Source of the DNA: Candidatus Scalindua sp.
GTDB lineage: Bacteria > Planctomycetota > Brocadiia > Brocadiales > Scalinduaceae
Assembly (NCBI GenBank): GCA_031316235.1
Contig: JALDRA010000001.1
Location: 3,750,001 to 3,782,000 of the forward strand
Direction of reading: 5' to 3'
DNA length: 32,000 nucleotides
Of the stretch, positions 10,779 through 31,765 are shown piece after piece (the stretch's first letter is position 1; every line of letters begins with the position of its first letter). A model generated the notes under the pieces. That model worked only from the letters and a program-made list of their open reading frames with translations, did not search any database and was not told the DNA's origin. The position numbers and the translations under genes were made by a program.

Positions 10779-10876
10779 GTATCCGTAAAAGTACCACTAT
10801 AGTCTCACCTACGTTGAGCTATCTATAATTGCTAAAAACCCTTAAAACTCACTTACAAGGTGATACCAATTTGTTA

Positions 10877-11017
10877 TATACTCATCTCATACTGGATTTC
10901 GGATTCAATCCGAGATAAAATTGAGCAAATAAAGTCCTCGGTGCCTTTTGTCCGGTGATACCATTAACCAGGCTTTGGTTTTTAGATAAATCAAAAAGCC
11001 AGATTGGTTTCAGTATA
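10877..11017 (-). mobile_element. MITE-A copy 3 (divergent, long variant)
   Basis: TATACTCATCTCATACTGGATTTCGGATTCAATCCGAGATAAAATTGAGCAAATAAAGTCCTCGGTGCCTTTTGTCCGG...GGTTTCAGTATA is collinear with the reverse complement of copies 6 and 7. Confidence 0.7.
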
Positions 11018-12856: not shown

Positions 12857-13149
12857 TATACTGAAACCGATCTGGTTTTAGATTTTTCTCAGCGTTGTCC
12901 GGTTAGGTTTTTGCGTAGGTGGCTTTTGTCATACCCGAACGTCTTTATCGGGTATCCAGAGACTCGTTTCATCATAGATTCCTGCTAAAAACATGCGGGA
13001 ATGACAGTTTTAGGGCAATAATTAAATACGCAAAAACCTAACCGGACAACGCTGGATTTTTCTAAAAACCAAATCTTGGTGAAGGTATACTCGCTCAATT
13101 TTATCTCGGATTTTATCCGAAAACCATAAACCATTATAAGATGAGTATA
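12857..13149 (+). mobile_element. MITE-A copy 4 (short variant), interrupted by MITE-B copy 3
   Basis: TATACTGAAACCGATCTGGTTTTAGATTTTTCT | insert | GATTTTTCTAAAAACCAAATCTTGGTGAAGGTATACTCGCTCAATTTTATCTCGGATTTTATCCGA...AAGATGAGTATA. Confidence 0.8.
12890..13054 (+). mobile_element. MITE-B copy 3 (165 bp), perfect ~27-bp terminal inverted repeats, 9-bp target-site duplication
   Basis: The ends are CAGCGTTGTCCGGTTAGGTTTTTGCGTA ... TACGCAAAAACCTAACCGGACAACGCTG. Direct GATTTTTCT lies at 12881..12889 and 13055..13063. Confidence 0.9.
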
Positions 13150-13185
13150 TCTCAAAAAAAGGATATTTCGTCTGTTTTTTTAGTT

Positions 13186-13937: not shown

Positions 13938-14047
13938 TATACATCATATAGTAGTTTTCGGATACAATCCGAGAAACAATTGAGCGAGTATACCTTCACC
14001 AAGATTTGGTTTCCGGTAAAACCGAAAACCAAATCGGTTTTAGTATA
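13938..14047 (-). mobile_element. MITE-A copy 5 (short variant, 110 bp)
   Basis: TATACATCATATAGTAGTTTTCGGATACAATCCGAGAAACAATTGAGCGAGTATACCTTCACCAAGATTTGGTTTCCGGTAAAACCGAAAACCAAATCGGTTTTAGTATA. It carries the intact ACCTTCACC site. Confidence 0.8.
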
Positions 14048-14292
14048 AATGCCAGAATTCTGTAATCACGGGAATTTCTCTGCATTTTCTCTTGAAAAAG
14101 CACTATTTGTTGTTACTATTTATTGATTAACTTTAATAGCCATATCGGAAAAGAGCAACGTTTTACTGTCGGTCTGAATATAAATTCACCTTTCTGGGAT
14201 TGTAAGAGTTCTTTCTTGCTTGAAAAGATAAACCAGCAAGGGTTTTGCGAAACGTATACAAGTAAGCAACCATTGATTATATTGTAATACTC

Positions 14293-16580: not shown

Positions 16581-16846
16581 GTATAATACCAGATTCTGCA
16601 ACTCCCCACTGAATCTTTCCTGTTTACCTCTGCCATAATTGTCAGGATCTGTCTTTCTCTCTGATCCGGAGAGATTTCCATCAGGCCCCATGGCCAGGAG
16701 CAGAGAGTGTCCCGTAAATCACTATTGTCAATCAGTCGGCAAAAAGATGTTTAACCTTATGCCGGATAATCTCAACTGAAGATTTAGCTGATACTGGTGG
16801 CTATATAGCAGGTTTCTTTGCTCGCCAGCAATTATCGAGGTAATAT

Positions 16847-16985
16847 TATACTAAAACCGATTTGGTTTCCGGTTTTACCGGAAACCAAATCTTGGTGGAG
16901 GTATCCCCGGACAAAAAACGCCGAGGACTTTACTCGCTCAATTTTATCCCGGATTGTATCCGAAATCCAGTATGAGATGAGTATA
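16847..16985 (+). mobile_element. MITE-A copy 6 (long variant, 139 bp)
   Basis: TATACTAAAACC-GATTTGGTTTCCGG-TTTTA-CCGGAAACCAAATC (perfect 14-bp hairpin, 16859..16891) ...GGTATCCCCGGACAAAAAACGCCGAGGACTTTACTCGCTCAATTTTATCCCGGATTGTATCCGAAATCCAGTATGAGATGAGTATA. Confidence 0.85.
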
Positions 16986-17972
16986 TTTTAGAACTTTTGC
17001 GAAGCAGATAAAAAGTGAGTAAAAATCTACAATCTGGTTTACAAAATAATTAAACACTTGGTAAATTGAAATAATATGCTATACTTCTTTCTCAAGACTT
17101 TCTTTTAATACCTTTCAGTACACCCCGAATCAGGTGCCGTGATTTATAGAGCGAGAAACTGGGGAATGAGATGCAATCTCTATTTCCTGGGGTCCAGGGC
17201 AGATTTTCTGTAAGAATATCGGCGAAAAGTAAAGATATTGTAAATTCTTGTTGGTATGTTAGGCACCCGCTAATCATGCACATCCATCCGTTTTGGTAAC
17301 TTTCGAATAAGTTCCAAAAATGGCGAAAAACGAAACAGAAACTGTTGCACCCATTGTAAAGAATAATTAAGATTAATGTGTTTTGCTTTCACATAGAGTG
17401 TCTGATGATATAGGTTGGGAGTACTGGGACTACAAAGGAAATTGTCCCTTTTTGTGTAAACTATTATTTAAAATCAAAAATGGTAGATAGGCAGTTTGTA
17501 ACTTGCTGTAACAGATATGGTTATACAAGAATTGAGAAAAACGTGAAATATTTATGTATACTTATTCCTCTGTTTGTCCACAAAATACCCAAAAAACTTC
17601 CCCTTCGCTTGGGAGTACCTTTTTTAGTAAGTTACGTTAAGTGTATTGTTTACCATCATATCTCTGGAAAAAAAGTGAATTTGGTGTAGTATTTGCGTCT
17701 TATCGAATAAAGTGGTAATTCATAAGCATTCTCGGCACAGACGCTTATATTGGTTTTGCTCTGTAGAAAACATTGCAAATCGGAAGGCGTATGACCGTTT
17801 TCTATAAGTCGTTATGAATTAAGAGATTACGCCACAAATTCCCTGATGCGGTGAGAGAGATACGGAAAATCTATACTCCTCAATTAACATTTTAATTTTA
17901 CAAAAGTGGCAGTAAGTATCAAAGATATTAGAAAAAGTCTCAGATCTGAAAACGTGCAGGAATTGAGGTATG

Positions 17973-18111
17973 TATACTAAAACCGATTTGGTTTTCGGTT
18001 TTACCGGAAACCAAATCCTGGTGAAGGTATCCCCGGACAAAAAACGCCGAAGACTTTACTCGCTCAATTTAATCCCGGATTTTATCCGAAATACAGTATG
18101 AGATGAGAATG
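17973..18111 (+). mobile_element. MITE-A copy 7 (long variant, 139 bp)
   Basis: By manual alignment it differs from copy 6 at only about ten positions over 139 nt. It has the same orientation as copy 6. Confidence 0.85.
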
Positions 18112-18506
18112 TCTCTTCGGCAATGAGAGCGTATGGTCGATAGATGTACATCGAAAGGCTGGATAATTTCCAGTTATACCTTCAGAAGAATGTTCGAAGA
18201 TTGAAGGTGTTTCAATTTGCTGGTGCAATGGAATTAATTGTGCTCTGAGTCTTTGTAGAATTGCGATATGCATTCAAAATAGATGATAATAATAAAAAGT
18301 GCTGTAATTTTCGATTAAGGTTTCGATAATTATTGTGCCTTAGAAAACATTTGCATTATCCGCTTTAAGGGTTTTCATGGTGTAGTTGAGATGGCGGAGC
18401 TATGTGCGAATAACATATGTAACATGAGAATAGTTTATATCATACGGCCTTATATTTTAGAATTTACCATGGAAGAACAGTTTATCATTCTGACTTATTG
18501 TAATTC

Positions 18507-20597
18507 ATGAATATAGTTAAAAATCAACATATCGAGATATTGAAAGGTTTTTTGATTAAGAACAGGCGTATAGTGGTGACAGCCATTCATATCCTTCAGG
18601 TAGTGGTGGCGAATTATCTTGCCTTTCTCCTGAGATTTGAGACACCATTTTCGACTGTGTATGCAGACCAGCTGTTCCCTTCACTTCCTGTCCTGTTGAC
18701 AATCCGCCTTGCCCTTTACCTTCAGGCGGGCATGTATAAAGATCTCTGGCGTTATTCAAGTATCAGCGACATGATCAGTATTATAAGGACGGTTGCAATC
18801 GGAAGTGTCGTATTCTTTGTGATAAACAGGTATTTCCTGGGGAGTACCTACTATCCTCTCTCGGTGTACGTGCTTGAATGGATGCTGCTTCTGTTTATTT
18901 CCTGCGGGACCAGGCTTTTGATCAGGGTCTGTTTCAAGAAGTATCGAAGCTTTCAATCGTCAGCCAGAAAGATCCTGATTATTGGTACGACAGCTGGTGA
19001 AGCAATTGTACGGGATATGAAAAACAACCCGGGATCATCGTATAACCCGATCGGGTTCATGGACGAAGACCCGTATAAAAAAGGGCTTGAGATACACGGT
19101 GTTCCCATCTTCGGTCAAATAAGCGGCCTGGCTGGCGTGATAAAGAAGCAGAAGCCTGATGAGATACTGATTTCAATGGTTTCAACGGACAGTAAAACGA
19201 TTAAGAGTATCTATGACCAAAGTAAGCCCTTTAACATTCCTATCAAGAAACTGCCCGGGATAAATGATATCCTTGTGGGCAATATTTCCGTGGAAGCGAG
19301 ACTTGGTCAGCGTTTAATTGACGCCGGCATGGTGAAGGAAACCCAGATACAGGAGGCCCTTGCCTTACAGAAGAATGAGGGGGGGATGCTGGGTTCGATA
19401 CTGGTTCAAAGCGGGTATATCAAGGAGGAAGAGCTTTTTTCTTATCTTACCGAGCAGAGCGGTATTTCCCGTATGAAACCGATATCGCTTGAAGATCTGA
19501 TCCAGAGAGAGCAGGTGAGGTCTGACATACAATCAGTGCGGGAATTTATCCAGGGGAAAACGGTGATGGTAACGGGGGCAGGCGGTTCGATAGGGTCTGA
19601 GCTGTGCCGTCAGTTAATTAAGTACAACCCCGCTCACCTGGTGCTCTATGAGAGATATGAGAACAGTCTGTTTCATATAGATCATGAATTAAACCGTTTT
19701 GAAGAGAACAGGGCAAAGAAGAACTTTACGCCGGTGATAGGAGACATGCTGGATACCAGGAATCTGGAATATGTCTTTTCCACATACAGGCCTCAGATTA
19801 TTTTTCATGCGGCGGCACACAAACATGTTCCCCTGTTAGAGCAGAACCCGCTGGAGGCGGTCAAGAACAATGTCTTCGGTACAAAAAATGTGATAGAAGC
19901 GGCGGTGAAGTACAATGCGGAGAGTTTTGTGCTGATCTCATCAGACAAGGCGGTAAACCCGACAAGTACCATGGGGGCCACGAAACGCATAGCCGAGTTT
20001 TTAACGATAGCGATGAATGCCTTTTCAAGTACAAAATTTTCAACCGTACGGTTTGGAAATGTGCTGGGGAGTAATGGAAGTGTTATCAAGATCTTCGAGG
20101 AGCAGTTGAAGCGGGGAGGGCCATTAACGATTACGCATCCGGAGATAAAGAGGTTTTTCATGCTGATACCGGAGGCGATCCAGCTGGTTCTTATGGCGGC
20201 GGCGCTGAAGAAGGGTGGACAGATTCTGGTGCTTGATATGGGAGAGCAGATAAAGATCGTAGAGCTTGCGGAGAATCTGATAAGGCTTTCGGGGTTTGTT
20301 CCTCATAAGGAGATTAAGATGGAGTTTACGGGTCTTCGCCCTGGTGAGAAGTTGTATGAAGAGCTGTTTGACAAATCGGAAAAGGTTATCAGCACGATGC
20401 ATGAAAAGTTCTGGCTGACGATTCCTGAAACTCCTTCGATAGGGGAATTTAACAATCAGATTGCGGAACTTGAACGCATTGTTCGGGACAATGCAATAGA
20501 CGAAGTAGTCTCGGCAATTAAGGACATCGTGCCAAGTTTTAAATGTGATTACAACGCGAACTCTGATGAGATTGTCAAACAAGTGAAATCCGGGTAG
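18507..20597 (+). CDS. Membrane-anchored CapD/PglF/WbpM-type nucleotide-sugar 4,6-dehydratase (Polysacc_synt_2 SDR) with an inserted MshEN-like module
   Basis: It has four N-terminal hydrophobic helices, the Rossmann motif VMVTGAGGSIGSEL, the catalytic region ISSDKAVNPTSTMGATKRIAE, and VRFGNVLGSNGSV. Residues 265-317 form an extra segment described in the findings. Confidence 0.85.
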   Translation: MNIVKNQHIEILKGFLIKNRRIVVTAIHILQVVVANYLAFLLRFETPFSTVYADQLFPSLPVLLTIRLALYLQAGMYKDLWRYSSISDMISIIRTVAIGSVVFFVINRYFLGSTYYPLSVYVLEWMLLLFISCGTRLLIRVCFKKYRSFQSSARKILIIGTTAGEAIVRDMKNNPGSSYNPIGFMDEDPYKKGLEIHGVPIFGQISGLAGVIKKQKPDEILISMVSTDSKTIKSIYDQSKPFNIPIKKLPGINDILVGNISVEARLGQRLIDAGMVKETQIQEALALQKNEGGMLGSILVQSGYIKEEELFSYLTEQSGISRMKPISLEDLIQREQVRSDIQSVREFIQGKTVMVTGAGGSIGSELCRQLIKYNPAHLVLYERYENSLFHIDHELNRFEENRAKKNFTPVIGDMLDTRNLEYVFSTYRPQIIFHAAAHKHVPLLEQNPLEAVKNNVFGTKNVIEAAVKYNAESFVLISSDKAVNPTSTMGATKRIAEFLTIAMNAFSSTKFSTVRFGNVLGSNGSVIKIFEEQLKRGGPLTITHPEIKRFFMLIPEAIQLVLMAAALKKGGQILVLDMGEQIKIVELAENLIRLSGFVPHKEIKMEFTGLRPGEKLYEELFDKSEKVISTMHEKFWLTIPETPSIGEFNNQIAELERIVRDNAIDEVVSAIKDIVPSFKCDYNANSDEIVKQVKSG

Positions 20598-20737
20598 CTT
20601 CTGTTGAGTTTTTCAATTGATTGGTAGGACGAATTACTGGTATCCCGGTATGGACAGTACGTCACATTTGTCTGCAAAAGCATTTATTTTTTTACCGCTG
20701 TGTTCTAAACCTTATAACTTTTGAGTGGAGATTTTTT

Positions 20738-21511
20738 ATGAAAGCCGTTATCCTTGCAGGAGGTTTTGGTACCCGACTATCTGAAGAAACTGTCATACGT
20801 CCCAAACCAATGGTAGAAATCGGTGATAAACCCATCCTGTGGCATATAATGAAAATGTATTCTGCCTATGATATAAATGACTTCATTATCTGCCTTGGTT
20901 ATAAAGGTTACTTCATTAAAGAATATTTTGCCACGTATTCCATACACATGTCAGATGTTACATTCGACTTGCGTAACAACAATGTTGAGATTCTCCAAAA
21001 CGGTACTGAGCCGTGGAAGATAACGCTGATTGATACCGGTGAAAACACCATGACAGGTGGCCGTCTTAAGAGAGTTAAAGATTACATAGGTAATGAAACA
21101 TTCTGTATGACTTATGGAGACGGTGTGTCAGATGTAAATATAAGAAAGTTAATTGACTTTCATTTCGAACAGAAAACACTTGCTACATTAACTGCAGTAC
21201 AACCACCAGGACGTTTCGGCGCCTTCAAATTAAGTAGTGATCAAAATAAAATCTACGCCTTTAAAGAAAAACCTCAAGGTGAAGGTGCCATGATCAACGG
21301 TGGTTTTTTTGTATTGGAGCCTGGTGTAATGGACTATATAACAGATGACTCGAATGTTTGGGAGCGGGAGCCTTTAGAAAAACTGGCTCATGACGGTATG
21401 TTGGCAGCATACCGGCACCATGGGTTTTGGGAACCTATGGATACTTTGAGGGATAAAATGTATTTAGAAAAGCTTTGGAACTCTAGTAAACCTCCGTGGA
21501 AGGTGTGGTGA
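20738..21511 (+). CDS. rfbF: Glucose-1-phosphate cytidylyltransferase
   Basis: [64 protein letters not shown] is the textbook RfbF/DdhA N-terminus. The ATG at 20738 is preceded by GAGTGGAG, and the upstream 39 codons of the ORF look non-coding. Confidence 0.85.
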
Positions 21512-21516
21512 AAATT

Positions 21517-22629
21517 ATGGTACTACGAGCAAAAACGACAAATTTGTTACAAACGAAAACCTTAACAGAAAAGCAAAGAAAAAACAGTGAACTGAATACA
21601 GGAGAATCAAAGGAGGGAAATACTGTCCTCCAGTCGTATCCAAGACGTGTTATCCTGGAATTGACAAATGCATGTAACCTCAAATGCTTGATGTGTGGCA
21701 GAGATGAATCAGAATTTAACAATAGATTTTTTGATTTATCGTATTTGAAGAAGCTAGATACTGTATTGGAACATGCTGAAGAAGTTACCTTATTTGGATG
21801 GGGGGAACCGACAATACACCCAAAATTCGTCGATCTTTTAAAGTACATGGACCGCTTTCCGGTAAGGAAATATTTTGTTACAAATGGAACTCGATTGAAA
21901 AAGTTAAAAAATGCTATTTTCGATTATAATGTTGATATTATAGCCATCAGCCTTGATGGTGCAAGTGCGTTAACAAATGACAGGATTCGTGTGGGAGCGA
22001 GTTATGAGGAGATAATTACTGGTCTGTCGAGTATTGTTGAAGAAAAAAATAGACGCAAGAGCAGTTTTCCTTACATGAATTTTGTATTTACCGTTATGCA
22101 GTCAAATATTCATGAGTTGCCGGAAATGATTAAACTTGCAGCACGAATAGGATTAGAGGAGGTCAAGGTAGTTTATCTTACTGTATTCAGTGAGAGTCTG
22201 TTGCATGAGTCTTTATGGGATTCCAGCTCTGAGGTAAAGGATGTTTTTGACGAAGCGGTTCGACTATCAGAAGAATTAGGGATTAAAATAAAACTACCGT
22301 ATCTGCAGGGTGAAGATGTCGCCGGTCAACAATATCACAAGGACTGTTTTGTAGGTTGGCGCGATTTTTTTCTTGGTTCAGATGGTTATGTGCGACCTTG
22401 TCAATCTACAGCCATGAAGTTATTCAGCGATAATAGATACAGCACCTTTGAAGAGATGTGGAATTCCGCTGAATATCAGGATTTTAGAGGTCGAGTAAAC
22501 GCACATGATTCAATGCCAGAGGAGTGCAAACGATGTTACCAGTCATCGCATGCCAACTGGAATAAAAAGGAGTCTTTTATTCAAACAGGTGAGGCTTTTG
22601 CCCCAGAATGGGAAAAAAAGAAGTCATAA
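21517..22629 (+). CDS. Radical SAM enzyme with a C-terminal twitch/SPASM-like Cys-rich auxiliary domain
   Basis: The CxxxCxxC motif is in ELTNACNLKCLMCGRD. The C-terminal CFVGWRDFFLGSDGYVRPC (C-X12-G-X4-C) plus CKRC give four auxiliary cysteines. The start could also be the GTG at 21496, which overlaps the rfbF end. Confidence 0.75.
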   Translation: MVLRAKTTNLLQTKTLTEKQRKNSELNTGESKEGNTVLQSYPRRVILELTNACNLKCLMCGRDESEFNNRFFDLSYLKKLDTVLEHAEEVTLFGWGEPTIHPKFVDLLKYMDRFPVRKYFVTNGTRLKKLKNAIFDYNVDIIAISLDGASALTNDRIRVGASYEEIITGLSSIVEEKNRRKSSFPYMNFVFTVMQSNIHELPEMIKLAARIGLEEVKVVYLTVFSESLLHESLWDSSSEVKDVFDEAVRLSEELGIKIKLPYLQGEDVAGQQYHKDCFVGWRDFFLGSDGYVRPCQSTAMKLFSDNRYSTFEEMWNSAEYQDFRGRVNAHDSMPEECKRCYQSSHANWNKKESFIQTGEAFAPEWEKKKS

Positions 22630-22662
22630 GCGCAAAGAATGGATTTAATAAGGGTATTGAAG

Positions 22663-22801
22663 TATATTCATCTTACAATGGTTTTCGGATAAAATCCGAG
22701 ATAAAATTGAGCGAGTAAAGCCCTCGGCGTTTTTTGTCCGGGGATACCTTCACCAGAATTTGGTTTCCGGTAAAACCGAAAACCAAATCGGTTTTAGTAT
22801 A
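22663..22801 (-). mobile_element. MITE-A copy 8 (long variant, 139 bp)
   Basis: It is the reverse complement of the copy 6/7 consensus, TATATTCATCTTACAATGGTTTTCGGATAAAATCCGAGATAAAATTGAGCGAGTAAAGCCCTCGGCGTTTTTTGTCCGGGGATACC...GGTTTTAGTATA. Confidence 0.85.
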
Positions 22802-23169
22802 AACAGTAGTTGGAATTGAAGGGATAGTAATAAAAGAGCAAATGACCCGGGTTCGTGCGTGGAAGGATCGATGTGTGTTGTTAATCGCAGAAGTAAAAGT
22901 GATTGAGCATACAAGTGGTTGAAGAATGAAAGAAATAAAAATGCATACGTGTTGAGAAATATAGCAAAAAGGTATCAACCTGGCTCAGAGAATCTTTCAA
23001 TTATCATCATCATTTTCAATAGAAGAAATCAATGTCTCATATCTCAAAGAAACGTGCAGTACTTTCTTATCCAGGCAATATAGCAGAGAGACTAGCACGA
23101 GCATCAGGAAAAGAGTGTAATCAATCTGTATTTTGATATCCATTTACCCTGTAACCTATTAACTAATAC

Positions 23170-23700
23170 ATGATTTTTACCGAGACAAAACTAAAAGGTG
23201 CATTCATCATAGAACCAGAAAAGTTGAAAGACGAACGTGGCTTTTTTGCGAGAATATGGTGTAAAAAAGAATTTGAAGCTCACGGTTTAAATACACGTCT
23301 TGTTCAGACCAATGTAGCTTTCAATAAAAAAAAAGGAGTGTTGCGTGGTATGCATTATCAGGTAACTCCCTATGAAGAAACCAAGTTGATACGATGTACT
23401 GAAGGTGCAATCTATGATGTGATTATTGATTTAAGGGAAAGTTCTCCTACCTATAAGCAATGGATAGGTGTTGAGTTAACACAGGATAACTACAAGATGC
23501 TTTATGTTCCAGAATGTTTTGCTCATGGTTATCAGACACTTCAAGATAACACGGAGGTGTCGTATCAGGTATCACAATTTTATGCTCCAAATTCAGAGCA
23601 GGGCATTCGCTGGAATGATCCATCCTTTACTATTCAATGGCCGGAGGCTAAAGAAAAGATAATTTCTGTAAAAGATCAAAGGTGGCCTGACTATCGTTGA
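23170..23700 (+). CDS. NDP-4-dehydro-6-deoxyhexose 3,5-epimerase (RmlC/RfbC cupin family)
   Basis: TKLKGAFIIEPEKLKDERGFF, LRGMHYQ, KLIRCTEGAIYDVIIDLR and YVPECFAHGYQTL are RmlC signature regions. The nucleotide specificity (dTDP vs CDP) cannot be told from sequence. Confidence 0.8.
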   Translation: MIFTETKLKGAFIIEPEKLKDERGFFARIWCKKEFEAHGLNTRLVQTNVAFNKKKGVLRGMHYQVTPYEETKLIRCTEGAIYDVIIDLRESSPTYKQWIGVELTQDNYKMLYVPECFAHGYQTLQDNTEVSYQVSQFYAPNSEQGIRWNDPSFTIQWPEAKEKIISVKDQRWPDYR

Positions 23701-23772
23701 TTACATGATTTCTTGGAATGAATAATTGAGAACAAGTAAATATCTATAAACCAACTCACTGGAGGACAGAAA

Positions 23773-25059
23773 ATGATTATTGTTGATACAGCACTTGCAA
23801 AAAGGCATGAAGAAGGCAACCCGGTCAGGGTTGCCTTGGTTGGTGCTGGTTTTATAGGACGGGGTGTTGCATTTCAGATTCAAAATTACGTTAAGGGGAT
23901 GAGACTGGTAGCTGTCTCTAACCGTACGCTCTCCAAGGCGGAGCAGGCATTGCGTGAAGCAGGGGTCAGTGAAATCAATACGGTTGAAACCGTTGCCCAA
24001 TTAGAAGAGTCCATAGCAAAGGGACGTAGTGCGATTACAGATGATGTTATGCTTCTCTGCAAGGCAGACGGTATAGATGTTATCATTGAAGCAACAAGTG
24101 ATATAGAATATACCGCTCATCTGGCGACAAATGCTATTAAATACAAAAAACACATTGTTATCATGAATGCTGATCTGGATGCTACAGTCGGACCGATTCT
24201 TAAGGTTCATGCAGACCGTGCAGGTGTTGTCATAAGTGCTACAGACGGCGACCAACCGGGAGCCATGATGAATCTGTACCGCTTCGTTAAGACAATTGGC
24301 TATAACCCTGTTTTGGTAGGGAATATGAAAGGTCTCCAGGATTTTTACCGAACTCCTGATACGCAAAGAGAATTTGCAGCAAAGCACGGTCTATCACCTA
24401 AGATGGCTACCTCTTTTGCAGATGGAACAAAGATATCCATGGAAAACACTTTAGTCGCTAATGCAACTGGTTTTGGAGTTGGCAGAAGAGGTATGTATGG
24501 TCCTAAGTGTGATCATGTCAATGAATCGAAGGACCTGTTTTCTTTAGATAAACTTCTTAACGGTGGAATAGTTGATTACGTTCTCGGTGCCGAACCTGGT
24601 CCTGGTGTATTCGTCTTGGGGTACAGCGACGACCCCCACAGAAAGCCTTACATGAGATATTATAAGTTGGGTGAGGGGCCATTATACGTTTTCTATACAC
24701 CGTATCACTTGGCATCCCTGGAGGTACCGATCACCGCTGCACGAGCTGTATTGTTTCAAGATGCGTCCGTAACTCCAATTGCCGGACCTGTATGCGATGT
24801 AATAACCGTTGCCAAGCGAGATCTTAAAGCGGGAGAGGTGCTGGATGGTATCGGGGGATTTAACTGCTATGGTATGATTGAAAATACGAAGACATGTCAG
24901 AACGATAATTTATTGCTCATGGGTCTGTCTGAAGGATGTCTCCTTAAGAATGATATACCAAAGGACCAGGCTATTACTAATGGAGATGTGGAAAAGCCTG
25001 AAAGCCGTTTGGTCGACAAATTGCGGGCTGAGCAGGATGCTCATTTTCGAGTTTCATAA
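23773..25059 (+). CDS. NAD(P)-dependent oxidoreductase with a C-terminal SAF domain (COG4091-like, 'predicted homoserine dehydrogenase' type)
   Basis: It has the Rossmann motif VALVGAGFIGRGVAF and a C-terminal SAF-like VITVAKRDLKAGEVLDGIGGFNCYG. GGAGGA lies 5 nt upstream of the ATG. Confidence 0.6.
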   Translation: MIIVDTALAKRHEEGNPVRVALVGAGFIGRGVAFQIQNYVKGMRLVAVSNRTLSKAEQALREAGVSEINTVETVAQLEESIAKGRSAITDDVMLLCKADGIDVIIEATSDIEYTAHLATNAIKYKKHIVIMNADLDATVGPILKVHADRAGVVISATDGDQPGAMMNLYRFVKTIGYNPVLVGNMKGLQDFYRTPDTQREFAAKHGLSPKMATSFADGTKISMENTLVANATGFGVGRRGMYGPKCDHVNESKDLFSLDKLLNGGIVDYVLGAEPGPGVFVLGYSDDPHRKPYMRYYKLGEGPLYVFYTPYHLASLEVPITAARAVLFQDASVTPIAGPVCDVITVAKRDLKAGEVLDGIGGFNCYGMIENTKTCQNDNLLLMGLSEGCLLKNDIPKDQAITNGDVEKPESRLVDKLRAEQDAHFRVS

Positions 25060-25183
25060 TGCAATACAAGAATGTGATTTTCAAGGAAATGAAAATTTTA
25101 TAAATCCTATTAAAAGGAATCCAGTTTACATAACATTAATTTTTGATGATAAACGTTTATCGATATTGAAAATGGAGGCAAAA

Positions 25184-25948
25184 ATGAACCCTGTGAACAA
25201 GGTGCTTTCTTTATTTGGTTTAAGATTATCAAGAGAGAATAAAACGATTAAACCAAGAAATAAGAAAGAAAAGGAATTTAGGGAAAAATATGAATATTAC
25301 TTTAAACAGGCCGAAAATAATAAAAGAGGATTTAAAGTACTCAAGGACTACAGATACCAGGCAGGTGAACATCCTTTCTTCCGCAGCGATCTTCAATGTG
25401 AATTTGTTGCATATCATCTCTATAATGAAAAACCGGTAAAAGTATTAGATATAGGATCATGGAGGCATTTCATCATAGGGATGTTGGCTCATTATGACGT
25501 GACTACGATAGATTTTCGAAACAGAAAATCTATCTTGAAAAATGAAACTATTTTGACATGCGATGCCAAGGAACTCAATATTCCTAGTAATTCATTTGAT
25601 TCGGTAATATCTTTAGGCTCTGTTTACGTTTTTGGATTAGGAAGATATGGAGACGAGTTTGATTTAGATGCAGACATTAAAGCCCTTAACCATATGATCA
25701 GGGTATTAAAACCTGGCGGTCTTTTAATCTTTTCAACATCGATAACAGCAGCGCAGCCTACTGTTTTATTTAATAGGACAAGGATTTATAATTATGAAAT
25801 GATTAGAGGTTTGTGTGATGGTTTGGATTGTGTGGAGGAAAAATTTTGTGGTATACGATCGAACAAAGCTTCTTTTCTTAAACTTGAAGAACTAACAACA
25901 AATCCTACCGCTTTTGATATATATATGGGATGTTGGAGAAAAAAATAA
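25184..25948 (+). CDS. Class I SAM-dependent methyltransferase
   Basis: VKVLDIGSWRH (motif I-like), NSFDSVISLGSV (motif II-like) and VLKPGGLLIFS. The ATG at 25184 follows GGAGG (25174..25178). The ATG at 25172 is an alternative, and the longer ORF from 24878 overlaps the previous gene. Confidence 0.6.
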   Translation: MNPVNKVLSLFGLRLSRENKTIKPRNKKEKEFREKYEYYFKQAENNKRGFKVLKDYRYQAGEHPFFRSDLQCEFVAYHLYNEKPVKVLDIGSWRHFIIGMLAHYDVTTIDFRNRKSILKNETILTCDAKELNIPSNSFDSVISLGSVYVFGLGRYGDEFDLDADIKALNHMIRVLKPGGLLIFSTSITAAQPTVLFNRTRIYNYEMIRGLCDGLDCVEEKFCGIRSNKASFLKLEELTTNPTAFDIYMGCWRKK

Positions 25949-26225
25949 AATATACTAAAGCGGTATTTGTGATCATTGATACATTAATTATCTCAACAGA
26001 TCCGGTGGGTTTTATTCAAAAGGTGCAGAGTTAACATTCTTGAAACGATTAGGTGTCTTTGATAGAATCCGGGTATCTTCTATGTTAAATCTGCCAGTCA
26101 CCGGTTACGAAGAATCCGTTTACTGATTGTTTTTTTATTGTATATTACGTGAAATTTGTGTGTTCAATAGTGCGATTTATTAATATGCTGTTTGGTTCTG
26201 GCCTGTAAAGATTAGGGGGAAATAT

Positions 26226-27533
26226 ATGGATTGTTCAAAGTCTCTTAAGCTGAATAAAAGGTTTCATTCAATAATACCTGGTGGATCTCATACCTACGCG
26301 AAGGGAGACGATCAGTATCCTGAATTTGCTCTTCCGTATATAGTCAGGGGAGAGGGTTGCCATGTCTGGGATATGGATGGTAATGATTTTATTGAATACG
26401 GTATGGGGGTACGTACTGTAACACTGGGTCACGCATATAAGCCGGTAGTAGAAGCGGCTTATAAGCAAATGCTTAACGGGAATAATTTTATTCGCCCGGC
26501 AACAATTGAGCTTGAATGTGCTGAACAGTTGTTAGGTATGATCAAGGGCGCAGAAATGGTAAAATTTGCAAAAAATGGGTCGGATGCCAATAACGGGGCT
26601 ATTAAGTTATCAAGGGCTTACACGGGTCGAGACATCATTGCAATTTGCGGTAACCATCCATTCTTCTCTGTTGATGATTGGTTCATTGGAACAACCCCGA
26701 TGTCTTCCGGTGTGTCGAAGGCAGCGCAGGATCTAACGGTTAAATTTCAGTATAATGACATAGATAGTGTTAAAGCGCTTTTTGATCAGTATCCTGACAG
26801 AATTGCCTGTGTAATTCTGGAGCCTGAAAAAGAGCAGGAACCCCAGAATAATTTTTTACATGAGTTACAAAAACTGTGTAAAGAAAATGGTACAGTATTT
26901 ATTCTTGATGAAATGATTACAGGATTTCGATGGCATAACGGTGGAGCACAGAGGTTTCATGACATAATTCCTGACTTATCTACATTTGGGAAAGCAATTG
27001 GCAACGGTTTTTCTGTATCAGCACTGGTTGGCAAAAAAGAATTAATGGGTTTAGGCGGACTTGATCACGACAAAGAACGTGTATTCCTGATGTCTGCCAC
27101 TCATGGTGCAGAAAATCATGGTTTAGCTGCTGCCCTGGAGACGATGAAAATTTATCAAAATGAGCCTGTTGTTGAAACCCTTTGGCGTCAGGGTGAGCGT
27201 CTGGCATCAGGGCTCAGTAAATCGATTGATGAGAACAGCCTTACTAACCATATCTCAGTATTCGGCAGGCCATGCTGCCTTGTTTATGGCACTCGAGATA
27301 ATGAAAATAAACCTTCTCAGCCTTTTAGGACATTGCTGCTGCAGGAAATTATCAAGCGGGGAATATTAGCACCAAGCCTTGTTGTCAGTTATTCACATAC
27401 AGACGCAGATATTGACAGGACAATTGAAGCGTTTCATGAGGCTTTCGTTATATATCAGAAGGCTCTGAATGAAGGTATCGAGAAATATCTCGTCGGTCGA
27501 CCTGTTAAACCTGTGTGGCGAAGATTTAATTAA
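26226..27533 (+). CDS. Class III PLP-dependent aminotransferase (glutamate-1-semialdehyde aminomutase-like)
   Basis: IIPGGSHTYAKG, FILDEMITGFRW and STFGKAIGNGFSVSAL (PLP-lysine region) are present. AGGGGGA lies upstream of the ATG. Confidence 0.75.
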   Translation: MDCSKSLKLNKRFHSIIPGGSHTYAKGDDQYPEFALPYIVRGEGCHVWDMDGNDFIEYGMGVRTVTLGHAYKPVVEAAYKQMLNGNNFIRPATIELECAEQLLGMIKGAEMVKFAKNGSDANNGAIKLSRAYTGRDIIAICGNHPFFSVDDWFIGTTPMSSGVSKAAQDLTVKFQYNDIDSVKALFDQYPDRIACVILEPEKEQEPQNNFLHELQKLCKENGTVFILDEMITGFRWHNGGAQRFHDIIPDLSTFGKAIGNGFSVSALVGKKELMGLGGLDHDKERVFLMSATHGAENHGLAAALETMKIYQNEPVVETLWRQGERLASGLSKSIDENSLTNHISVFGRPCCLVYGTRDNENKPSQPFRTLLLQEIIKRGILAPSLVVSYSHTDADIDRTIEAFHEAFVIYQKALNEGIEKYLVGRPVKPVWRRFN

Positions 27534-27584
27534 TTATTAGAAAAAATCAAAAACTTCACTTGAAGATATATTAGATACAATTTC

Positions 27585-28451
27585 TTGAATTATTGTAAAC
27601 AAAATACGAGAACTTGCCGGGAAGTAATCGGTTTATTTCCTGCAGGTGGAAGGGCTTCCAGAATAGCTCCTCTGCCCTGCAGCAAAGAATTGTATCCGGT
27701 CGGATTTCATCCTGTAGGGAGAGACCGCAGCTTACGGCCCAAGGTGATTAGCCATTATTTGTTGGAGAAAATGCGGTTAGCTAATATTAGAAAGGCTTAC
27801 ATAATATTGCGTGAAGGGAAATGGGACATTCCTGCCTATTTTGGGAATGGTAAAATGCTTGACATGCACTTGGCATATCTGATGATGGATTTGCCATTTG
27901 GTGTGCCTTATACTTTAGACCAGGCATACTATTTTGTAGAAGACGCTATTATAGCCCTGGGCTTCCCCGATACGATTTTTCAGCCAGACGATGTCTTTGT
28001 AAAATTGCTTGCCAAACAGACAGAATCTGACGCTGATCTTGTGCTTGGTCTTTTTCCTGCTCTCCAGCCACATAAAACCGACATGGTGGAATTGGATGAT
28101 ATGGGCCGGATAAGCTCAATCACAATAAAACCTGGTAATACTAAACTTTTATATGCCTGGGAAACAGCTGTCTGGACCCCTGTTTTCACACGTTTTATGC
28201 ACGACTATGTATTGGACAGGCAGGTATTATGTGACGAGAACAAGATTGAAAATAATCTTGACAAACAGAAGGAATTACATGTAGGAGATATTATTCATGC
28301 TGCTATTCAAAATGATATGAAAATTGATGCAGTACTTTTTAAAGAGGGCAGCTGCTTGGATATTGGTACTCCTGATGATTTACTAAAGGCTGTTCAAATT
28401 ACAAATCAAGTTTCGTCGGACGATCAATTATTATCTTATAATGCAATATAA
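27585..28451 (+). CDS. Sugar-phosphate nucleotidyltransferase (NTP_transferase fold)
   Basis: VIGLFPAGGRASRIAPLPCSKELYPVG matches the GxGxR...K nucleotidyltransferase signature. The only in-frame start upstream of the motif is the TTG at 27585 with no obvious RBS, so the start is uncertain. Confidence 0.6.
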   Translation: MNYCKQNTRTCREVIGLFPAGGRASRIAPLPCSKELYPVGFHPVGRDRSLRPKVISHYLLEKMRLANIRKAYIILREGKWDIPAYFGNGKMLDMHLAYLMMDLPFGVPYTLDQAYYFVEDAIIALGFPDTIFQPDDVFVKLLAKQTESDADLVLGLFPALQPHKTDMVELDDMGRISSITIKPGNTKLLYAWETAVWTPVFTRFMHDYVLDRQVLCDENKIENNLDKQKELHVGDIIHAAIQNDMKIDAVLFKEGSCLDIGTPDDLLKAVQITNQVSSDDQLLSYNAI

Positions 28452-29406
28452 TAACAATTCCTATTTCTGGAAAATTATTAAGCGGCTGTCGAGAATGAAT
28501 TATTATTCTGCCAGGGCTTACTATATGCACAGGATGCATCAATTGAGCCGTCGCTATAAGGAGCCGCCTTTAATAATTTATCAAATGGGCAAAGTTGGCT
28601 CCCGAACAATCTGTAATTCATTGGAGAGTTTAAACCTGGATATGCCGATATATCATACACATGGTCTAACACGTAGTTATATCGCTGAAAGAGAAATAAG
28701 GAGCAAAAGATATTTTGGCAAAGAAGAGTCTAATTATATCCACCTTAATGTTCCTTGGAAAAGTCAATATCTTCGGAAACTGATTGACAGAGGTTTTGGT
28801 GGTAAAAAGTGTAAGGTTGTCACCCTTGTAAGAGATCCTATAGCCGTTAACATTGCCGGTTTTTTCGAAAGAATTGATAAGGTGGATTATAATGATTCTG
28901 AGCATGTATTTACAATCAAATCGATAAAAGATGAATATGAGTTTACCGGGCGGATTGATGATATGGAGTCACTAAAGCAGCTCTTCTTTGAAAAATATGC
29001 CCATGATGAGCCCTTGACATTTTACGATTGTGAGTTGAAGAGTGTTTTTGGGATCGATGTTTTTGAATGTGAGTTTCCGAAATCAGAAGGATATAAAATA
29101 TATGAGGGAGAACATGCCGATGTTTTGCTGATACGGTTAGAAAGTCTTAACGAATGCGCTCAAAAAGCATTTAAAGAGTTCTTGCATATTGAAGGGTTTA
29201 CCTTGATAAATATAAACATCGGAAGTGAAAAAGATTACGCTTATCTTTACCAGAAGTTTAAAGACCTAGTCGCTTTGCCCGATACGTACATAGATAAAAT
29301 GTATAATTCTAAGTATGCACAACATTTTTATAGTGAGGAAGAAATCGGCCGTTTTAAAACCAGATGGCTTTCTTCAAAAAAAGATAGATGCCAGCAATTG
29401 GGATAG
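28441..29406 (+). CDS. Sulfotransferase-like protein (putative glycan sulfotransferase)
   Basis: YQMGKVGSRTI resembles the 5'-PSB loop (PKxGTT type) and VVTLVRDPIAVNIAGFF resembles the 3'-PB RDP motif of PAPS-dependent sulfotransferases. The match is weak and rests on motifs only. Confidence 0.4.
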   Translation: MQYNNNSYFWKIIKRLSRMNYYSARAYYMHRMHQLSRRYKEPPLIIYQMGKVGSRTICNSLESLNLDMPIYHTHGLTRSYIAEREIRSKRYFGKEESNYIHLNVPWKSQYLRKLIDRGFGGKKCKVVTLVRDPIAVNIAGFFERIDKVDYNDSEHVFTIKSIKDEYEFTGRIDDMESLKQLFFEKYAHDEPLTFYDCELKSVFGIDVFECEFPKSEGYKIYEGEHADVLLIRLESLNECAQKAFKEFLHIEGFTLININIGSEKDYAYLYQKFKDLVALPDTYIDKMYNSKYAQHFYSEEEIGRFKTRWLSSKKDRCQQLG

Positions 29407-29427
29407 GGATGGGGTTCGGTGAAGTAA

Positions 29428-29494
29428 AGAGACGAAAATAAAGAGAATTTCTTAACCAGTCTTAATGTTAAAGTCTCTTATTTTCGTTTTTTTT
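29428..29494 (+). terminator. Long AT-rich hairpin followed by a T7-8 run (intrinsic terminator-like)
   Basis: ACGAAAATAAAGAGA (29432..29446) pairs with TCTCTTATTTTCGT (29474..29487) with one bulge. An inner stem is CTTAAC/GTTAAAG. The structure is followed by TTTTTTT (29488..29494). Confidence 0.45.
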
Positions 29495-29534
29495 GCTAAA
29501 CAGCAGGAAGATCAGGACACTTAATTTAGGGAAA

Positions 29535-30788
29535 ATGAAGAATAAACAGATGAATTCATTGAAAACATATATGAGAACCAGGTATCCTGGGTTCTGGAAC
29601 CTCCTGAGAAAATTTAAAAAGAACACTGTAGTTCCGATTGTCGCCTTTTTCTCAGATCTCTACCTCAATAGCCGGTTTTTTCTCAGGAGAAGAAAGGGGT
29701 TTTCATCTGTACCGTGCCTGGTTCCATTTATGCGTTTGGAATTTCAGAAATTGGGAAGTGTTTCTACGTGCTGCACCGCCTTTACAAAAGTTAAATCTGT
29801 GGGGGATATGAAAACGCAGACAATTGAACAGATATGGAATGGAAGAAAAATAAGGAGGTTTCGAAAACAATTATTATTGGGACAAACATGTAAAGTATGC
29901 ATGCCAAATTGTGGTTATTTGAAGATTGGACCGATCTTTATTAAAGATATCTGCACTGACACACCAGAAGGAAAATCGCTTTATGATGATATTTCTCATG
30001 GGAGGGCAAAAATCAATTCACACCCTCTCAGGTTTAACCTTGCGAATTTTACGGTATGCAATCTCAATTGTGTCATGTGTCAATCCAGAGCTGTCGAAGC
30101 TCAAAATAAATCTATTCCCGAGTATGTAACAAAGACCCATGAAAACCTCAGGAACTATTTTGACAAGAAGATTACGCTCTATTTGTCAGGCAATGGTGAA
30201 GTCCTGGCCAGAAAGGACACGCGGGAACTTCTTCAGAATTTTGACAGTAAAAAATACAGTAAAGTTGATTTTCAGATCATAACAAACGGATTACTGTTTC
30301 AACCACGCATGTGGGAGACAATCAAACATAACAATTTTACCTACGCAAATATCTCAATAGATGCCGCAACGAAGGAGACGTATCAGAAAGTGAGACGTGG
30401 TGGGAACTGGGACCAATTGTTGGAAGCTTTGCAGGTATTTAAAAAAGCAAAAGAAGAGGGTAAATTTAGCAGTGTCAACATGAATATGACAGTTATGAAA
30501 AGTAATTTCAGAGAAATACCCCAATTTATTGAAATGGCGCGTGCAAGAGGATTCAATTCTCTGTTTACCAAGATCCGGGGGCCATTTAATGACGAAAATA
30601 TATTTGAATCAGATAATGAGGAAGCCCTTCAAGAACTAAAAGCGGTACTCTCTGATTCGAATCTTTATGGTGAAGATGTTGATATGAATGAACTACTCAA
30701 ATATATCCCTGAAAAATTCCATAAACGAATGGGGAATCACCTTACTTCAATATGGTACCCGGCATTTTTATTGAAAAAGCGTGAATAA
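29535..30788 (+). CDS. Radical SAM enzyme with an N-terminal twitch/SPASM-like Cys-rich domain (permuted order relative to 21517..22629)
   Basis: The N-terminal CLVPFMRLEFQKLGSVSTC (C-X12-G-X4-C) and CKVCMPNC come first, then the radical SAM motif NFTVCNLNCVMCQ. There are no cysteines after the core. I prefer the ATG at 29535, because the TTG at 29493 lies inside the terminator T-run. Confidence 0.7.
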   Translation: MKNKQMNSLKTYMRTRYPGFWNLLRKFKKNTVVPIVAFFSDLYLNSRFFLRRRKGFSSVPCLVPFMRLEFQKLGSVSTCCTAFTKVKSVGDMKTQTIEQIWNGRKIRRFRKQLLLGQTCKVCMPNCGYLKIGPIFIKDICTDTPEGKSLYDDISHGRAKINSHPLRFNLANFTVCNLNCVMCQSRAVEAQNKSIPEYVTKTHENLRNYFDKKITLYLSGNGEVLARKDTRELLQNFDSKKYSKVDFQIITNGLLFQPRMWETIKHNNFTYANISIDAATKETYQKVRRGGNWDQLLEALQVFKKAKEEGKFSSVNMNMTVMKSNFREIPQFIEMARARGFNSLFTKIRGPFNDENIFESDNEEALQELKAVLSDSNLYGEDVDMNELLKYIPEKFHKRMGNHLTSIWYPAFLLKKRE

Positions 30789-30934
30789 GGTCTGTGGTTT
30801 TTCACATGATTTTTTTTGAACCTGGAGTGGCGGTATATTTGATTTGTATGAAAAACAGGGTTTTTATTAAAAGGAATTTAAGGATAGAGATAATAAGTTT
30901 TTTAAGATTGAATTAATTGAGGTATAGAAATAGG

Positions 30935-31765
30935 ATGGAATTAAATAGCGATATGCGAACCATTATTAAACCAAGATCTGGATGGGAATTATTAAATTTA
31001 AGAGAACTGATAGAATACAGGGACCTGTTTTTTTTTACTGTCTGGCGTGATATCACAGCTCAATACGCTCAAACGGTTTTGGGCTTTTCATGGGCCATAA
31101 TCCAACCACTCGTGCAGATTGTACTTTTCTCCATTATATTCGGAAAGATTGCCAGGGTGTCTACAGACGGTGTCCCTTATCTCTTGTTTTCAAGTGTGGC
31201 GATCATACCCTGGACATACATGTCTCAGAGCATGACGATGTCTAGCCAGAGCCTTGTTCTGGGGTCGAAGATGCTTGGGAAGATATATTTTCCCAGGTTA
31301 ATCTACCCCATAACACCAGTTTTGTCTAATCTGGTAAATTTCGGTATTTCTATTATAATTATATTCTTCATAATGTTTTATTACCGTGTTTCCCCCACAT
31401 GGAACCTGCTTTATTTGCCATTGTTTTTTGTTATGATGATATCTGTTCCTCTTAGTGCAGGTCTGTGGCTATCTTCCCTCGCTATTCGCTATCGTGATGT
31501 AAAACATGGTATGCCCTTTTTTATCCAGATACTGATGTACACAGCGCCAATAGTATATACTGCTTCATCAGTACCTGAAAAATATCGCATGATCTACTCA
31601 ATAAATCCGATAGTAGGGGTTATTGAAGGATATAGGGCCTGTTTGCTCGGTACCGCTGTGCCCTGGCTTTATATCTGGCCAGGAATGGTTACAGCTGTCA
31701 TCCTGGTCATAAGCGGTGCATTTTATTTCAGGCGGTTTGAAAAAATTATTGTAGACGTTATTTAA
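30935..31765 (+). CDS. wzm: ABC-2 type polysaccharide exporter permease (Wzm/KpsM/TagG family)
   Basis: ELIEYRDLFFFTVWRDITAQYAQTVLGFSWAIIQPL is the typical N-terminal motif. About six hydrophobic helices follow. Confidence 0.8.
   Translation: MELNSDMRTIIKPRSGWELLNLRELIEYRDLFFFTVWRDITAQYAQTVLGFSWAIIQPLVQIVLFSIIFGKIARVSTDGVPYLLFSSVAIIPWTYMSQSMTMSSQSLVLGSKMLGKIYFPRLIYPITPVLSNLVNFGISIIIIFFIMFYYRVSPTWNLLYLPLFFVMMISVPLSAGLWLSSLAIRYRDVKHGMPFFIQILMYTAPIVYTASSVPEKYRMIYSINPIVGVIEGYRACLLGTAVPWLYIWPGMVTAVILVISGAFYFRRFEKIIVDVI

Follow-up and report, generated by a model that had tools for sequence, protein, structure and literature searches.

Cyclic di-GMP (c-di-GMP) is the main signal by which bacteria change between a free-living and an aggregated existence; in polysaccharide production it is known to act directly on synthases, co-polymerases and transcription factors. 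We know of no description of the nucleotide-sugar dehydratases PglF, WbpM or CapD as targets of a cyclic dinucleotide. Among the receptors for c-di-GMP is MshEN_N, a 53-residue domain first defined in Vibrio cholerae MshE, whose known hosts in the Wang 2016 architecture table are ATPases, family 2 glycosyltransferases (GT2), REC, HD-GYP, CheA, CheX, kinases, peptidase M23, TrxB and AAA_31 (PMC5013675). A polysaccharide enzyme that uses such a receptor is NfrB, a GT2 glycosyltransferase with a C-terminal MshEN domain that is activated by c-di-GMP, as poly-N-acetylglucosamine (PGA) and cellulose production are cited to be (PMC8669469). Here we analyze a 32,000-nucleotide stretch of Candidatus Scalindua sp. 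DNA (the window), in which the gene at 18507..20597 encodes a membrane-anchored dehydratase-like protein of the CapD/PglF/WbpM type with an MshEN_N module inserted ahead of its catalytic domain. The insert likely binds c-di-GMP and may thereby gate the output of the enzyme. The parts of the gene referred to below are:

18507..20597, + strand, insert-bearing dehydratase-like gene (696 aa; membrane-anchored, CapD/PglF/WbpM-type nucleotide-sugar 4,6-dehydratase-like; from open reading frame (ORF), Pfam and NCBIfam)
18507..18956, + strand, N-terminal membrane region (residues 1 to ~150; from AlphaFold2 secondary structure and a TIGR03025 match)
18729..19226, + strand, CoA_binding_3-like Rossmann domain (residues 75-240; PF13727, E 1.1e-15)
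19293..19466, + strand, 58-residue insertion (residues 263-320; without counterpart in ordinary CapD/WbpM-type proteins in alignment A2)
19299..19370, + strand, MshEN_N motif I (residues 265-288: RLGQRLIDAGMVKETQIQEALALQ; NF053729 positions 1-24)
19371..19385, + strand, spacer KNEGG (residues 289-293; five residues)
19386..19457, + strand, MshEN_N motif II (residues 294-317: MLGSILVQSGYIKEEELFSYLTEQ)
19479..19511, + strand, PISLEDLIQRE element (residues 325-335; opens the catalytic domain; conserved block in alignment A2)
19563..20414, + strand, Polysacc_synt_2 catalytic domain of the short-chain dehydrogenase/reductase (SDR) type (residues 353-636; PF02719, 388 bits)

The tandem motif was first noticed from the letters alone, and this original prediction read window 19299-19457 as RLGQRLIDAGMVKETQIQEALALQ-KNEGG-MLGSILVQSGYIKEEELFSYLTEQ, residues 265-317, a translation that is exact. 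As it described, two 24-residue motifs stand in register about a 5-residue spacer and satisfy the pattern RLGxx(L/V/I)(L/V/I)xxG(h)(L/V/I)xxxxLxxxLxxQ, with just two departures from the Wang 2016 consensus: Leu at position 17 of motif I is replaced by I281, and Arg at position 1 of motif II by M294. The NCBIfam model NF053729.1 ('c-di-GMP_motif'; 53 positions, named 'cyclic di-GMP-binding domain-containing protein, MshE-related') covers residues 265-317 over its full length (profile positions 1-53 of 53; E 1.4e-16, 60 bits), the isolated segment scores 65 bits against a curated cut-off of 38 bits, and the inserts of 47 of 47 diverse family members pass the same model. When the segment is compared by phmmer with PDB sequences, the significant matches are N-terminal domains of MshE/PilB/PilF only, including V. 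cholerae MshE (5HTL, E 6.7e-9), Thermus thermophilus PilF (E 2.2e-20, over several repeats) and PilF GSPII-B constructs (E 1e-5 to 1e-6). Together with the structural matches described below, these results bear out the claim that the segment is a true homologue of the MshEN-type c-di-GMP motif.

The Pfam check proposed alongside that claim came back empty, as the T2SSE_N/MshEN model (PF05157) matches neither the whole protein nor the isolated segment. The original prediction had counted such a blank against itself. The blank is real, but it is not valid evidence, since PF05157 covers the other subdomain: in a control pilus ATPase (P0130) the 90-position model aligns to residues 61-147, downstream of the first N-terminal motif stretch, and therefore describes the C-terminal subdomain. 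Because the insert is without that subdomain, the PF05157 miss is uninformative about homology, and after this mapping we dismissed it as evidence against it. The alpha/beta subdomain itself (MshEN_C/T2SSE_N1) was not detected in the protein, where ~7 residues separate Q317 from the first element of the catalytic domain. The insert is thus, as far as its sequence tells, an MshEN_N-only module of the sort listed in the latter half of Wang 2016 Suppl. Table 4. The sole Pfam match on the segment is a sub-threshold one to DUF4388 (E 0.033), while the NCBIfam models NF008411 and NF012033 match the insert only, at 26-34 bits against cut-offs of 1170 and 537.

The module is an insertion relative to ordinary members of the enzyme family. 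A tblastn search of plasmid records returned 708 records with CapD/WbpM-type genes, and five annotated full-length proteins (Legionella, B. thuringiensis, Deinococcus, Leptospira and Rhizobium; 35-40% identity) were aligned with the Scalindua protein (alignment A2). All five insert-less homologues show one clean 58-column gap opposite residues 263-320, between 'GNISV' and 'RMKPISLEDL', so that homologues do have just a short linker at this place, as the original prediction stated. The EDLL.R element is retained downstream, as had also been claimed, both in A2 and in the alignment with PglF at residue 325, in which PISLEDLIQRE pairs with DISIEDLLARK, where the solved catalytic domain of PglF begins (phmmer; 5BJU/5BJW). 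A Pfam scan of the whole protein assigns no domain to residues 241-352. AlphaFold2 models of the full-length protein and of the segment alone predict four helices in the insert (261-272, 278-291, 295-301 and 307-318), the segment-only model forming a four-helix unit with a predicted local distance difference test (pLDDT) score of 72. The best PDB match of this model in Foldseek is 5HTL (root mean square deviation (rmsd) of 1.1 Å over 54 columns, 39% identity), and the top matches are nearly all c-di-GMP-bound MshE or PilF GSPII-B structures (rmsd 1.1-1.6 Å, probability ~1.0), with E-values of just 0.04-0.9 because the domain is small.

The residues expected to contact the ligand are under purifying selection. 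The best 120 hits of a database search with the full protein (n=121 sequences with the query; 56-99% identity, 663-740 aa) all carry the tandem motif without gaps. Six residues (G267, L285, Q288, G296, L299 and L314) are invariant in 121 of 121 sequences, and L266/I, L270, L295 and L310 are nearly so, as are G292 and G293 of the spacer. The invariant set includes both Gly-3 positions and the Gln-24 of motif I, that is, positions of ligand contact: the backbone amides of the Gly-3 region read the Hoogsteen edge of guanine, and the Gln-24 of motif I contacts ribose and phosphate (PMC5013675). With the Scalindua clade left out, the mean identity between pairs of sequences comes to 0.66 in the insert, against 0.73 in the SDR and 0.59 in the CoA_binding_3 domain; by this measure the insert looks about as conserved as the catalytic domain.

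Both departures from the consensus fall within what known binders tolerate. Most of the 121 sequences have R at position 294 (97), followed by K (16), M (7) and L (1), and the Met is restricted to the Scalindua homologues nearest to the window protein. The residue opposite Met294 in the phmmer alignment is Leu196 of PilF GSPII-B, a domain that has K and L at the first positions of its motifs and binds c-di-GMP at 6 nM (PMC11731258). There the L196R substitution weakens binding 4-fold, K167L improves it to 2 nM, and the consensus has been widened to (R/K/L)LG, a large hydrophobic first residue favouring very high affinity (PMC11731258). Because the counterpart of Met294 is a Leu in a 6 nM binder, and given the L196R and K167L data, there is no reason to expect a loss of binding, and we argue against Met294 disabling the site. 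Ile281 for Leu is a conservative replacement; in PilF constructs a double Ile/Leu swap costs 2.4-fold (PMC12002112).

The host protein is a CapD/PglF-type enzyme whose flanking domains lie as the original prediction placed them (CoA_binding_3 at 75-240, Polysacc_synt_2 at 353-636), an assignment borne out by PF02719, PF13727, the PseB and FnlA profiles (NCBIfam), which match the C-terminal half, and the alignment with PglF structures, which extends over 340 residues of the catalytic domain at ~300 bits (phmmer). The SDR Rossmann motif, VTGAGGSIGSEL, occupies residues 355-366. Long helices are predicted in the AlphaFold2 model at residues 2-18, 20-44, 50-73, 86-110 and 118-143, and TIGR03025 (an exopolysaccharide sugar transferase family, here its N-terminal transmembrane and CoA_binding_3 module) matches residues 30-273; the CoA_binding_3-like domain is membrane-proximal and common to WbaP/WcaJ-type transferases. 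The Pfam scan finds no match to GT2 or to another glycosyltransferase family in the protein. S479-D480-K481, M489 and K493 line up with the STDK...M...K of PglF, in which Riegert et al. 2017 reportedly assigned catalytic roles to T395, D396, K397, M405 and K409. The TGAGGSIG motif, D480, K481, M489 and K493 are invariant across the 121 sequences, and position 479 is T in 113 and S in 8, the latter being the Scalindua clade. In this clade residue 479 (window 19941-19943) is thus Ser versus the catalytic Thr395 of PglF; the best PDB sequence match, PglF entry 5BJW, reads SSDK at the same site and 5BJU reads STDK. The Ser for Thr change is conservative, and to judge from these residues the catalytic machinery is intact. 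Homology to PseB, FnlA and PglF, together with the aminotransferase and transferase neighbours in relatives, points to 4,6-dehydratase activity on UDP-N-acetylglucosamine (UDP-GlcNAc). The product is identical to NCBI MDR4506237.1 and MEZ6157261.1, named 'polysaccharide biosynthesis protein [Candidatus Scalindua sp.]'.

In the mechanism that we propose, a four-helix MshEN_N module inserted in the linker between the membrane-proximal Rossmann-like domain and the SDR domain of an inner-membrane UDP-N-acetylhexosamine 4,6-dehydratase would bind one extended c-di-GMP monomer in the cytoplasm. Contacts would be made by the backbone amides after G267 and G296, by the Leu/Ile clusters and by Q288 and Q317, while R265 and M294 would stack on the guanines. 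Ordering of the bundle by the ligand would then shift the catalytic domain relative to the membrane domain, the dimer partner or an adjacent phosphoglycosyl transferase, so that commitment of UDP-GlcNAc to a 4-keto-6-deoxy (bacillosamine-type) priming sugar, and with it production of a surface or extracellular glycan, would be gated and would proceed when c-di-GMP is high. Binding of c-di-GMP by the insert is quite probable from the sequence; the full statement, that the module binds c-di-GMP and gates the dehydratase, we consider moderately probable and less secure than binding by itself. That binding changes enzyme output is a further step, which we infer because the module sits in the only tether between the membrane-proximal and catalytic domains, and because c-di-GMP on the MshEN domain of NfrB is reported to activate a polysaccharide enzyme allosterically (PMC8669469).

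The gene neighbourhoods of relatives are consistent with a role at the start of a glycan pathway. Nine non-Scalindua contexts were examined, in seven of which the gene of a PglE-like, DegT-type aminotransferase lies directly upstream of the insert-bearing gene. A ~200-aa Bac_transf (PglC-like) phosphoglycosyl transferase is encoded between the DegT and dehydratase genes in five of those seven and is fused to the dehydratase in one, while the remaining locus (L021) has the DegT aminotransferase only and no transferase. The fusion (P0126, 897 aa; Nitrospiraceae, MDA8172480.1; locus L011, 8001-10694) has the order Bac_transf - CoA_binding_3 - MshEN_N insert - Polysacc_synt_2 and is present on 8 contigs, which suggests that transferase and dehydratase operate as a physical unit. 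There is often a NusG-like gene further upstream and a sigma-54 response regulator gene downstream, and Wza- and Wzz/kinase-type export genes lie upstream in L021 and in two contexts without DegT. Downstream in most relatives' loci are nucleotidyltransferase, methyltransferase and RmlC-like genes, some loci also having DRL, Aminotran_3 or ABC-2/Wzt genes, so that much of the window's downstream gene set recurs after the insert-bearing gene in most relatives examined. A PilZ gene follows the insert-bearing gene immediately in two of the nine loci, both Nitrospirota-type (L015, 9171-9548; L018, 8174-8473), the two small proteins having RxxxR and NISETG signatures, and a third locus (L014, 1-255) has a GAF-GGDEF gene at its edge. 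The clusters in relatives appear wired to c-di-GMP at more than one point.

The original prediction had placed the enzyme at the entry step of this glycan pathway. Most relatives show the linkage that this implies, but the partner genes are not beside the gene in the window; the entry-step role is drawn from relatives since the window gene has no adjoining DegT aminotransferase and PglC-like transferase genes. Linkage to these genes, which is absent from the Scalindua loci, is a typical rather than a strictly defining feature of CapD/PglF/WbpM-type enzymes. What follows the gene in the window is a co-directional cluster:

20621..31765, + strand, glycan gene cluster downstream of the dehydratase gene (Pfam scan), encoding nucleotidyltransferase, radical SAM/SPASM, RmlC-like epimerase, DRL-type oxidoreductase, methyltransferase, class-III aminotransferase, second nucleotidyltransferase, NKWYS protein, second radical SAM and ABC-2 (Wzm-like) permease

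Several observations weigh against a c-di-GMP-gated dehydratase and bear on different steps of the argument. At the level of the fold, confidence in the insert model is moderate (pLDDT 61-85), the insert is without an MshEN_C subdomain, and in both AlphaFold2 models the first residue of helix 1 is 260 or 261, a start four to five positions ahead of R265 that resembles an apo, partly occluded state. At the level of the motif, Ser at position 1 of motif II abolished binding in one PilF GSPII-A construct, and GSPII-A restored to consensus was still non-binding in the full-domain context (PMC12002112). At the level of the locus, tblastn detects no DegT aminotransferase and no PglC-like transferase in the window, nor do they occur less than 10 kb from the gene at four Scalindua loci, and the 32 kb window contains no c-di-GMP-metabolizing gene. 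Finally, for every family member both c-di-GMP binding and regulation of the enzyme are predictions, and activation rather than inhibition is assumed purely by analogy with NfrB and MshE.

Two of these points can be set beside what is known of other MshEN domains. The failure of GSPII-A is attributed to an N-cap-stabilized extra helical turn and to inter-subdomain contacts. Inspection of the sequence ahead of R265 shows no pattern of a T/S/D N-cap with E/Q/D at N3, which disfavours a capped helix extension of the GSPII-A kind, and, judged by sequence, the predicted extension of helix 1 is closer to that of apo GSPII-B, which can unfold, than to the locked extension in GSPII-A. The isolated MshEN_N of MshE (residues 1-62) binds c-di-GMP with a dissociation constant (KD) of 0.35 µM, and MshEN_N-only architectures are known (PMC5013675).

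The alternative that survives best, although we judge it unlikely, is that the module is a structural or docking element derived from MshEN_N (a spacer, an oligomerization bundle, or a site for a PilZ or transferase partner) and that c-di-GMP input is indirect or absent. Its model is the N-terminal domain of Xanthomonas PilB, which binds PilZ rather than a nucleotide; complexes of the two (7LKM/7LKN/7LKO) are among the Foldseek neighbours of the insert model, but they match at just 17-18% identity and with worse rmsd than the c-di-GMP-bound structures. Likewise the PilZ genes directly downstream in L015 and L018 would supply a partner, yet just two of the nine loci have such a neighbour. A near-consensus motif also does not ensure binding in GSPII domains, and XpsE is a degenerate non-binder (G11V, G40L, L54H, L58C and Q61V; PMC5013675). 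The known non-binders have, however, lost key residues, GSPII-A carrying H33, S39, A41 and R62, whereas across the 121 sequences here the Gly-3 pair and Q288 are invariant and the Leu clusters are kept. Invariance of Gly-3 and Gln-24 is hard to explain by the fold alone because both make ligand contacts and neither serves core packing.

A second alternative, which we consider improbable, is that the module is a receptor for another cyclic dinucleotide such as 3'3'-cyclic GMP-AMP (cGAMP). A passage in Wang et al. (PMC5013675) reports that MshEN can bind cGAMP too, the half-sites recognize one purine each, and motif II here begins with Met and not Arg. Both half-sites nonetheless keep the guanine-recognizing Gly-3 backbone geometry and the Leu clusters, and where signalling genes lie near relatives they encode GGDEF and PilZ proteins and no cGAMP synthase. 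A likeness due to chance, to amphipathic helices or to low complexity in an ordinary variable linker, for which the lack of a PF05157 match and the sub-threshold DUF4388 hit might speak, is excluded by the full-length NF053729 match above cut-off, the phmmer matches to MshE/PilF, the Foldseek matches, the absence of the segment from ordinary homologues, its ungapped presence and catalytic-domain-like conservation in relatives, and the coverage of a different subdomain by PF05157.

The insert-bearing dehydratase is, on the sequences at hand, a conserved subfamily spread over several phyla and extends well beyond a single gene. Named members among the 120 best hits come from Planctomycetota/Scalindua, Nitrospirota, Thermodesulfovibrionales, candidate division WS5 and Ca. 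Sulfobium, and the family comprises at least 120 clusters at 90% identity. At 50% identity ~5 clusters span the whole junction (P0121, P0122, P0083, P0126 and P0127), which suggests a compact clade, probably derived from one insertion event followed by spread between phyla. A word-index search with the 115-aa junction gave 5 candidates, and one with an insert profile (A3) gave 348 candidates and 7 matches, all of them short GspE N-terminal fragments. Beyond the family, the insert is most similar (43-51% identity) to P0290 and P0293-P0295, which are N-terminal pieces of GspE-type secretion ATPases in Nitrospirota and Thermodesulfovibrionales. There is a weak hint in this that GspE-type ATPases of these phyla, which are richest in insert-bearing dehydratases, may be the source of the module. 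A scan of genome contigs with the single protein returned four Scalindua loci (81-90% identical) and one insert-less Rhizobiaceae match. Scalindua genomes have two paralogous insert-bearing dehydratases that are ~90% identical, as in one Scalinduaceae metagenome-assembled genome (loci L001 and L002) and in the window's own genome (P0272 and P0273); the window's downstream genes are shared with L001 and L003, while L002 and L004 have another context. Public records name family members just 'polysaccharide biosynthesis protein' or 'epimerase/dehydratase'.

Other features of the window were noted in passing. The ORF at 20621-21511 is listed from a TTG start and has ~39 extra residues without a family match, while the nucleotidyltransferase domain and its Scalindua orthologues start at ATG 20738 (MKAVILAGG), so that the intergenic distance to the dehydratase gene is ~140 nt. 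The two radical SAM/SPASM enzymes (21496-22629 and 29493-30788), in one of which SPASM is N-terminal to the radical SAM core, are not what an O-antigen- or capsule-type locus usually contains. The dehydratase gene is immediately preceded by a 1.9-kb stretch (16581-18506) with no ORF longer than 73 aa, a place that NusG-like, DegT aminotransferase and PglC-like transferase genes take in relatives of other phyla. In this stretch tblastn found no remnants of DegT, transferase, NusG or PilZ genes, and an Rfam scan of the whole window found neither a c-di-GMP riboswitch nor another Rfam family at the gathering threshold. The 1.9-kb stretch is bracketed by two copies of a ~140-nt repeat that is dispersed through intergenic DNA, its copies being 70-94% identical, and that contains a 33-nt palindrome, GATTTGGTTTCCGGTTTTACCGGAAACCAAATC. 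At least five copies in the window are full length (16847-16984, 17973-18110, 22660-22802 and 10876-11017 on the minus strand, and 4841-4972), others are partial (13990-14060, 1631-1691, 1397-1453 and 13088-13153), and further copies occur in other Scalindua genomes (L002, 12147-12287 and 16692-16778; L003, 7450-7619; L004, 5389-5501). The repeat has no Rfam match, and RNAalifold folds it into three hairpins with essentially no covariation (1 compensatory pair); it looks like a REP-/MITE-like element (repetitive extragenic palindrome or miniature inverted-repeat transposable element) or a small structured RNA family.

If the proposal is correct, the SDR sugar-dehydratase class would gain its first member under cyclic-dinucleotide control, and precursor supply and initiation would be a new point of c-di-GMP control. 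It is conceivable, at somewhat less than an even chance, that the conserved family as a whole (Nitrospirota, Thermodesulfovibrionales, WS5 and anammox Planctomycetota) gates an SDR enzyme directly by c-di-GMP at the first committed step to a bacillosamine-type sugar, so that control would act at precursor commitment and not at the polymerase, possibly within an initiation complex of dehydratase, aminotransferase and transferase. Its members cluster mainly in groups that matter for the environment and for engineering and that are uncultured or difficult to grow (anammox Scalindua, Nitrospirota), and direct regulation would provide a molecular link from c-di-GMP to aggregate formation and to extracellular polymeric substances (EPS) in anammox and nitrite-oxidizing consortia. 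In anammox granular sludge c-di-GMP levels correlate with EPS content, no receptor having been tied to the effect (review PMC11224092). Public annotation would then overlook a signalling input in this family. The hypothesis is directly testable with a small and probably soluble insert, with diagnostic mutations already described for MshE, NfrB and PilF, and with an established enzyme assay for PglF/WbpM.

Of the described systems, MshE (5HTL) and PilF GSPII-B (8PDK) are the closest to the insert itself. They share with it the two 24-residue motifs, the 5-residue spacer and the four-helix bundle (predicted here), ~39-41% identity over 53-54 residues and the ligand-contact positions, M294 being the parallel of L196. 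In both, however, the module is N-terminal on a secretion or pilus ATPase and is accompanied by MshEN_C, whereas the Scalindua module is internal to an enzyme and consists of the N-subdomain only, with binding predicted. Escherichia coli NfrB is similar in carrying an MshEN-type module on a membrane-associated polysaccharide enzyme, and its NCBIfam model NF008411 matches the insert in 36 of 47 family members, but NfrB polymerizes processively, is controlled at that polymerization step and ends in a complete MshEN domain, while the Scalindua host is an SDR dehydratase, predicted to act where the precursor is committed, with an internal MshEN_N-only module and no GT2 domain. The Scalindua protein is therefore not an NfrB-type member, though by analogy it may resemble NfrB in its working. 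An MshEN_N-only module on an exopolysaccharide protein also occurs in the EpsG-type tyrosine kinase of Methylobacillus (MshEN_N - AAA_31; TIGR03029; Wang 2016 Suppl. Table 4), where the module is N-terminal and its partner is an ATPase related to bacterial tyrosine (BY) kinases and not a sugar-modifying enzyme; positions 2-56 of TIGR03029 align with the insert here, and the model hits the inserts of 21 of 47 family members.

From the side of the host, Campylobacter jejuni PglF, Pseudomonas aeruginosa WbpM and Staphylococcus aureus CapD have the same transmembrane helices, CoA_binding_3-like domain, EDLL.R linker and Polysacc_synt_2 SDR domain, but in them, as in the five homologues of alignment A2, 'G.+.V' runs directly into '...EDLL.R' without a 58-residue module, and the Scalindua clade differs further in its Ser at the PglF Thr395 equivalent. 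BcsA-PilZ, Alg44-PilZ, PelD and PgaCD likewise control glycan output post-translationally through binding of c-di-GMP to a biosynthetic membrane protein, yet they use other receptor folds and place them on synthases or co-polymerases, not on a nucleotide-sugar-modifying enzyme. A Polysacc_synt_2/CapD enzyme is absent from the domain-architecture table of Wang 2016 (PMC5013675), and full-text searches, whose coverage leaves out many subscription papers, gave no paper on MshEN in CapD, WbpM, PglF, EpsC, a dehydratase or an epimerase, in line with the original prediction. The promiscuity of MshEN_N is itself known; what is new here is the placement of a known receptor module internally, in a new class of output enzyme and at a new control point.

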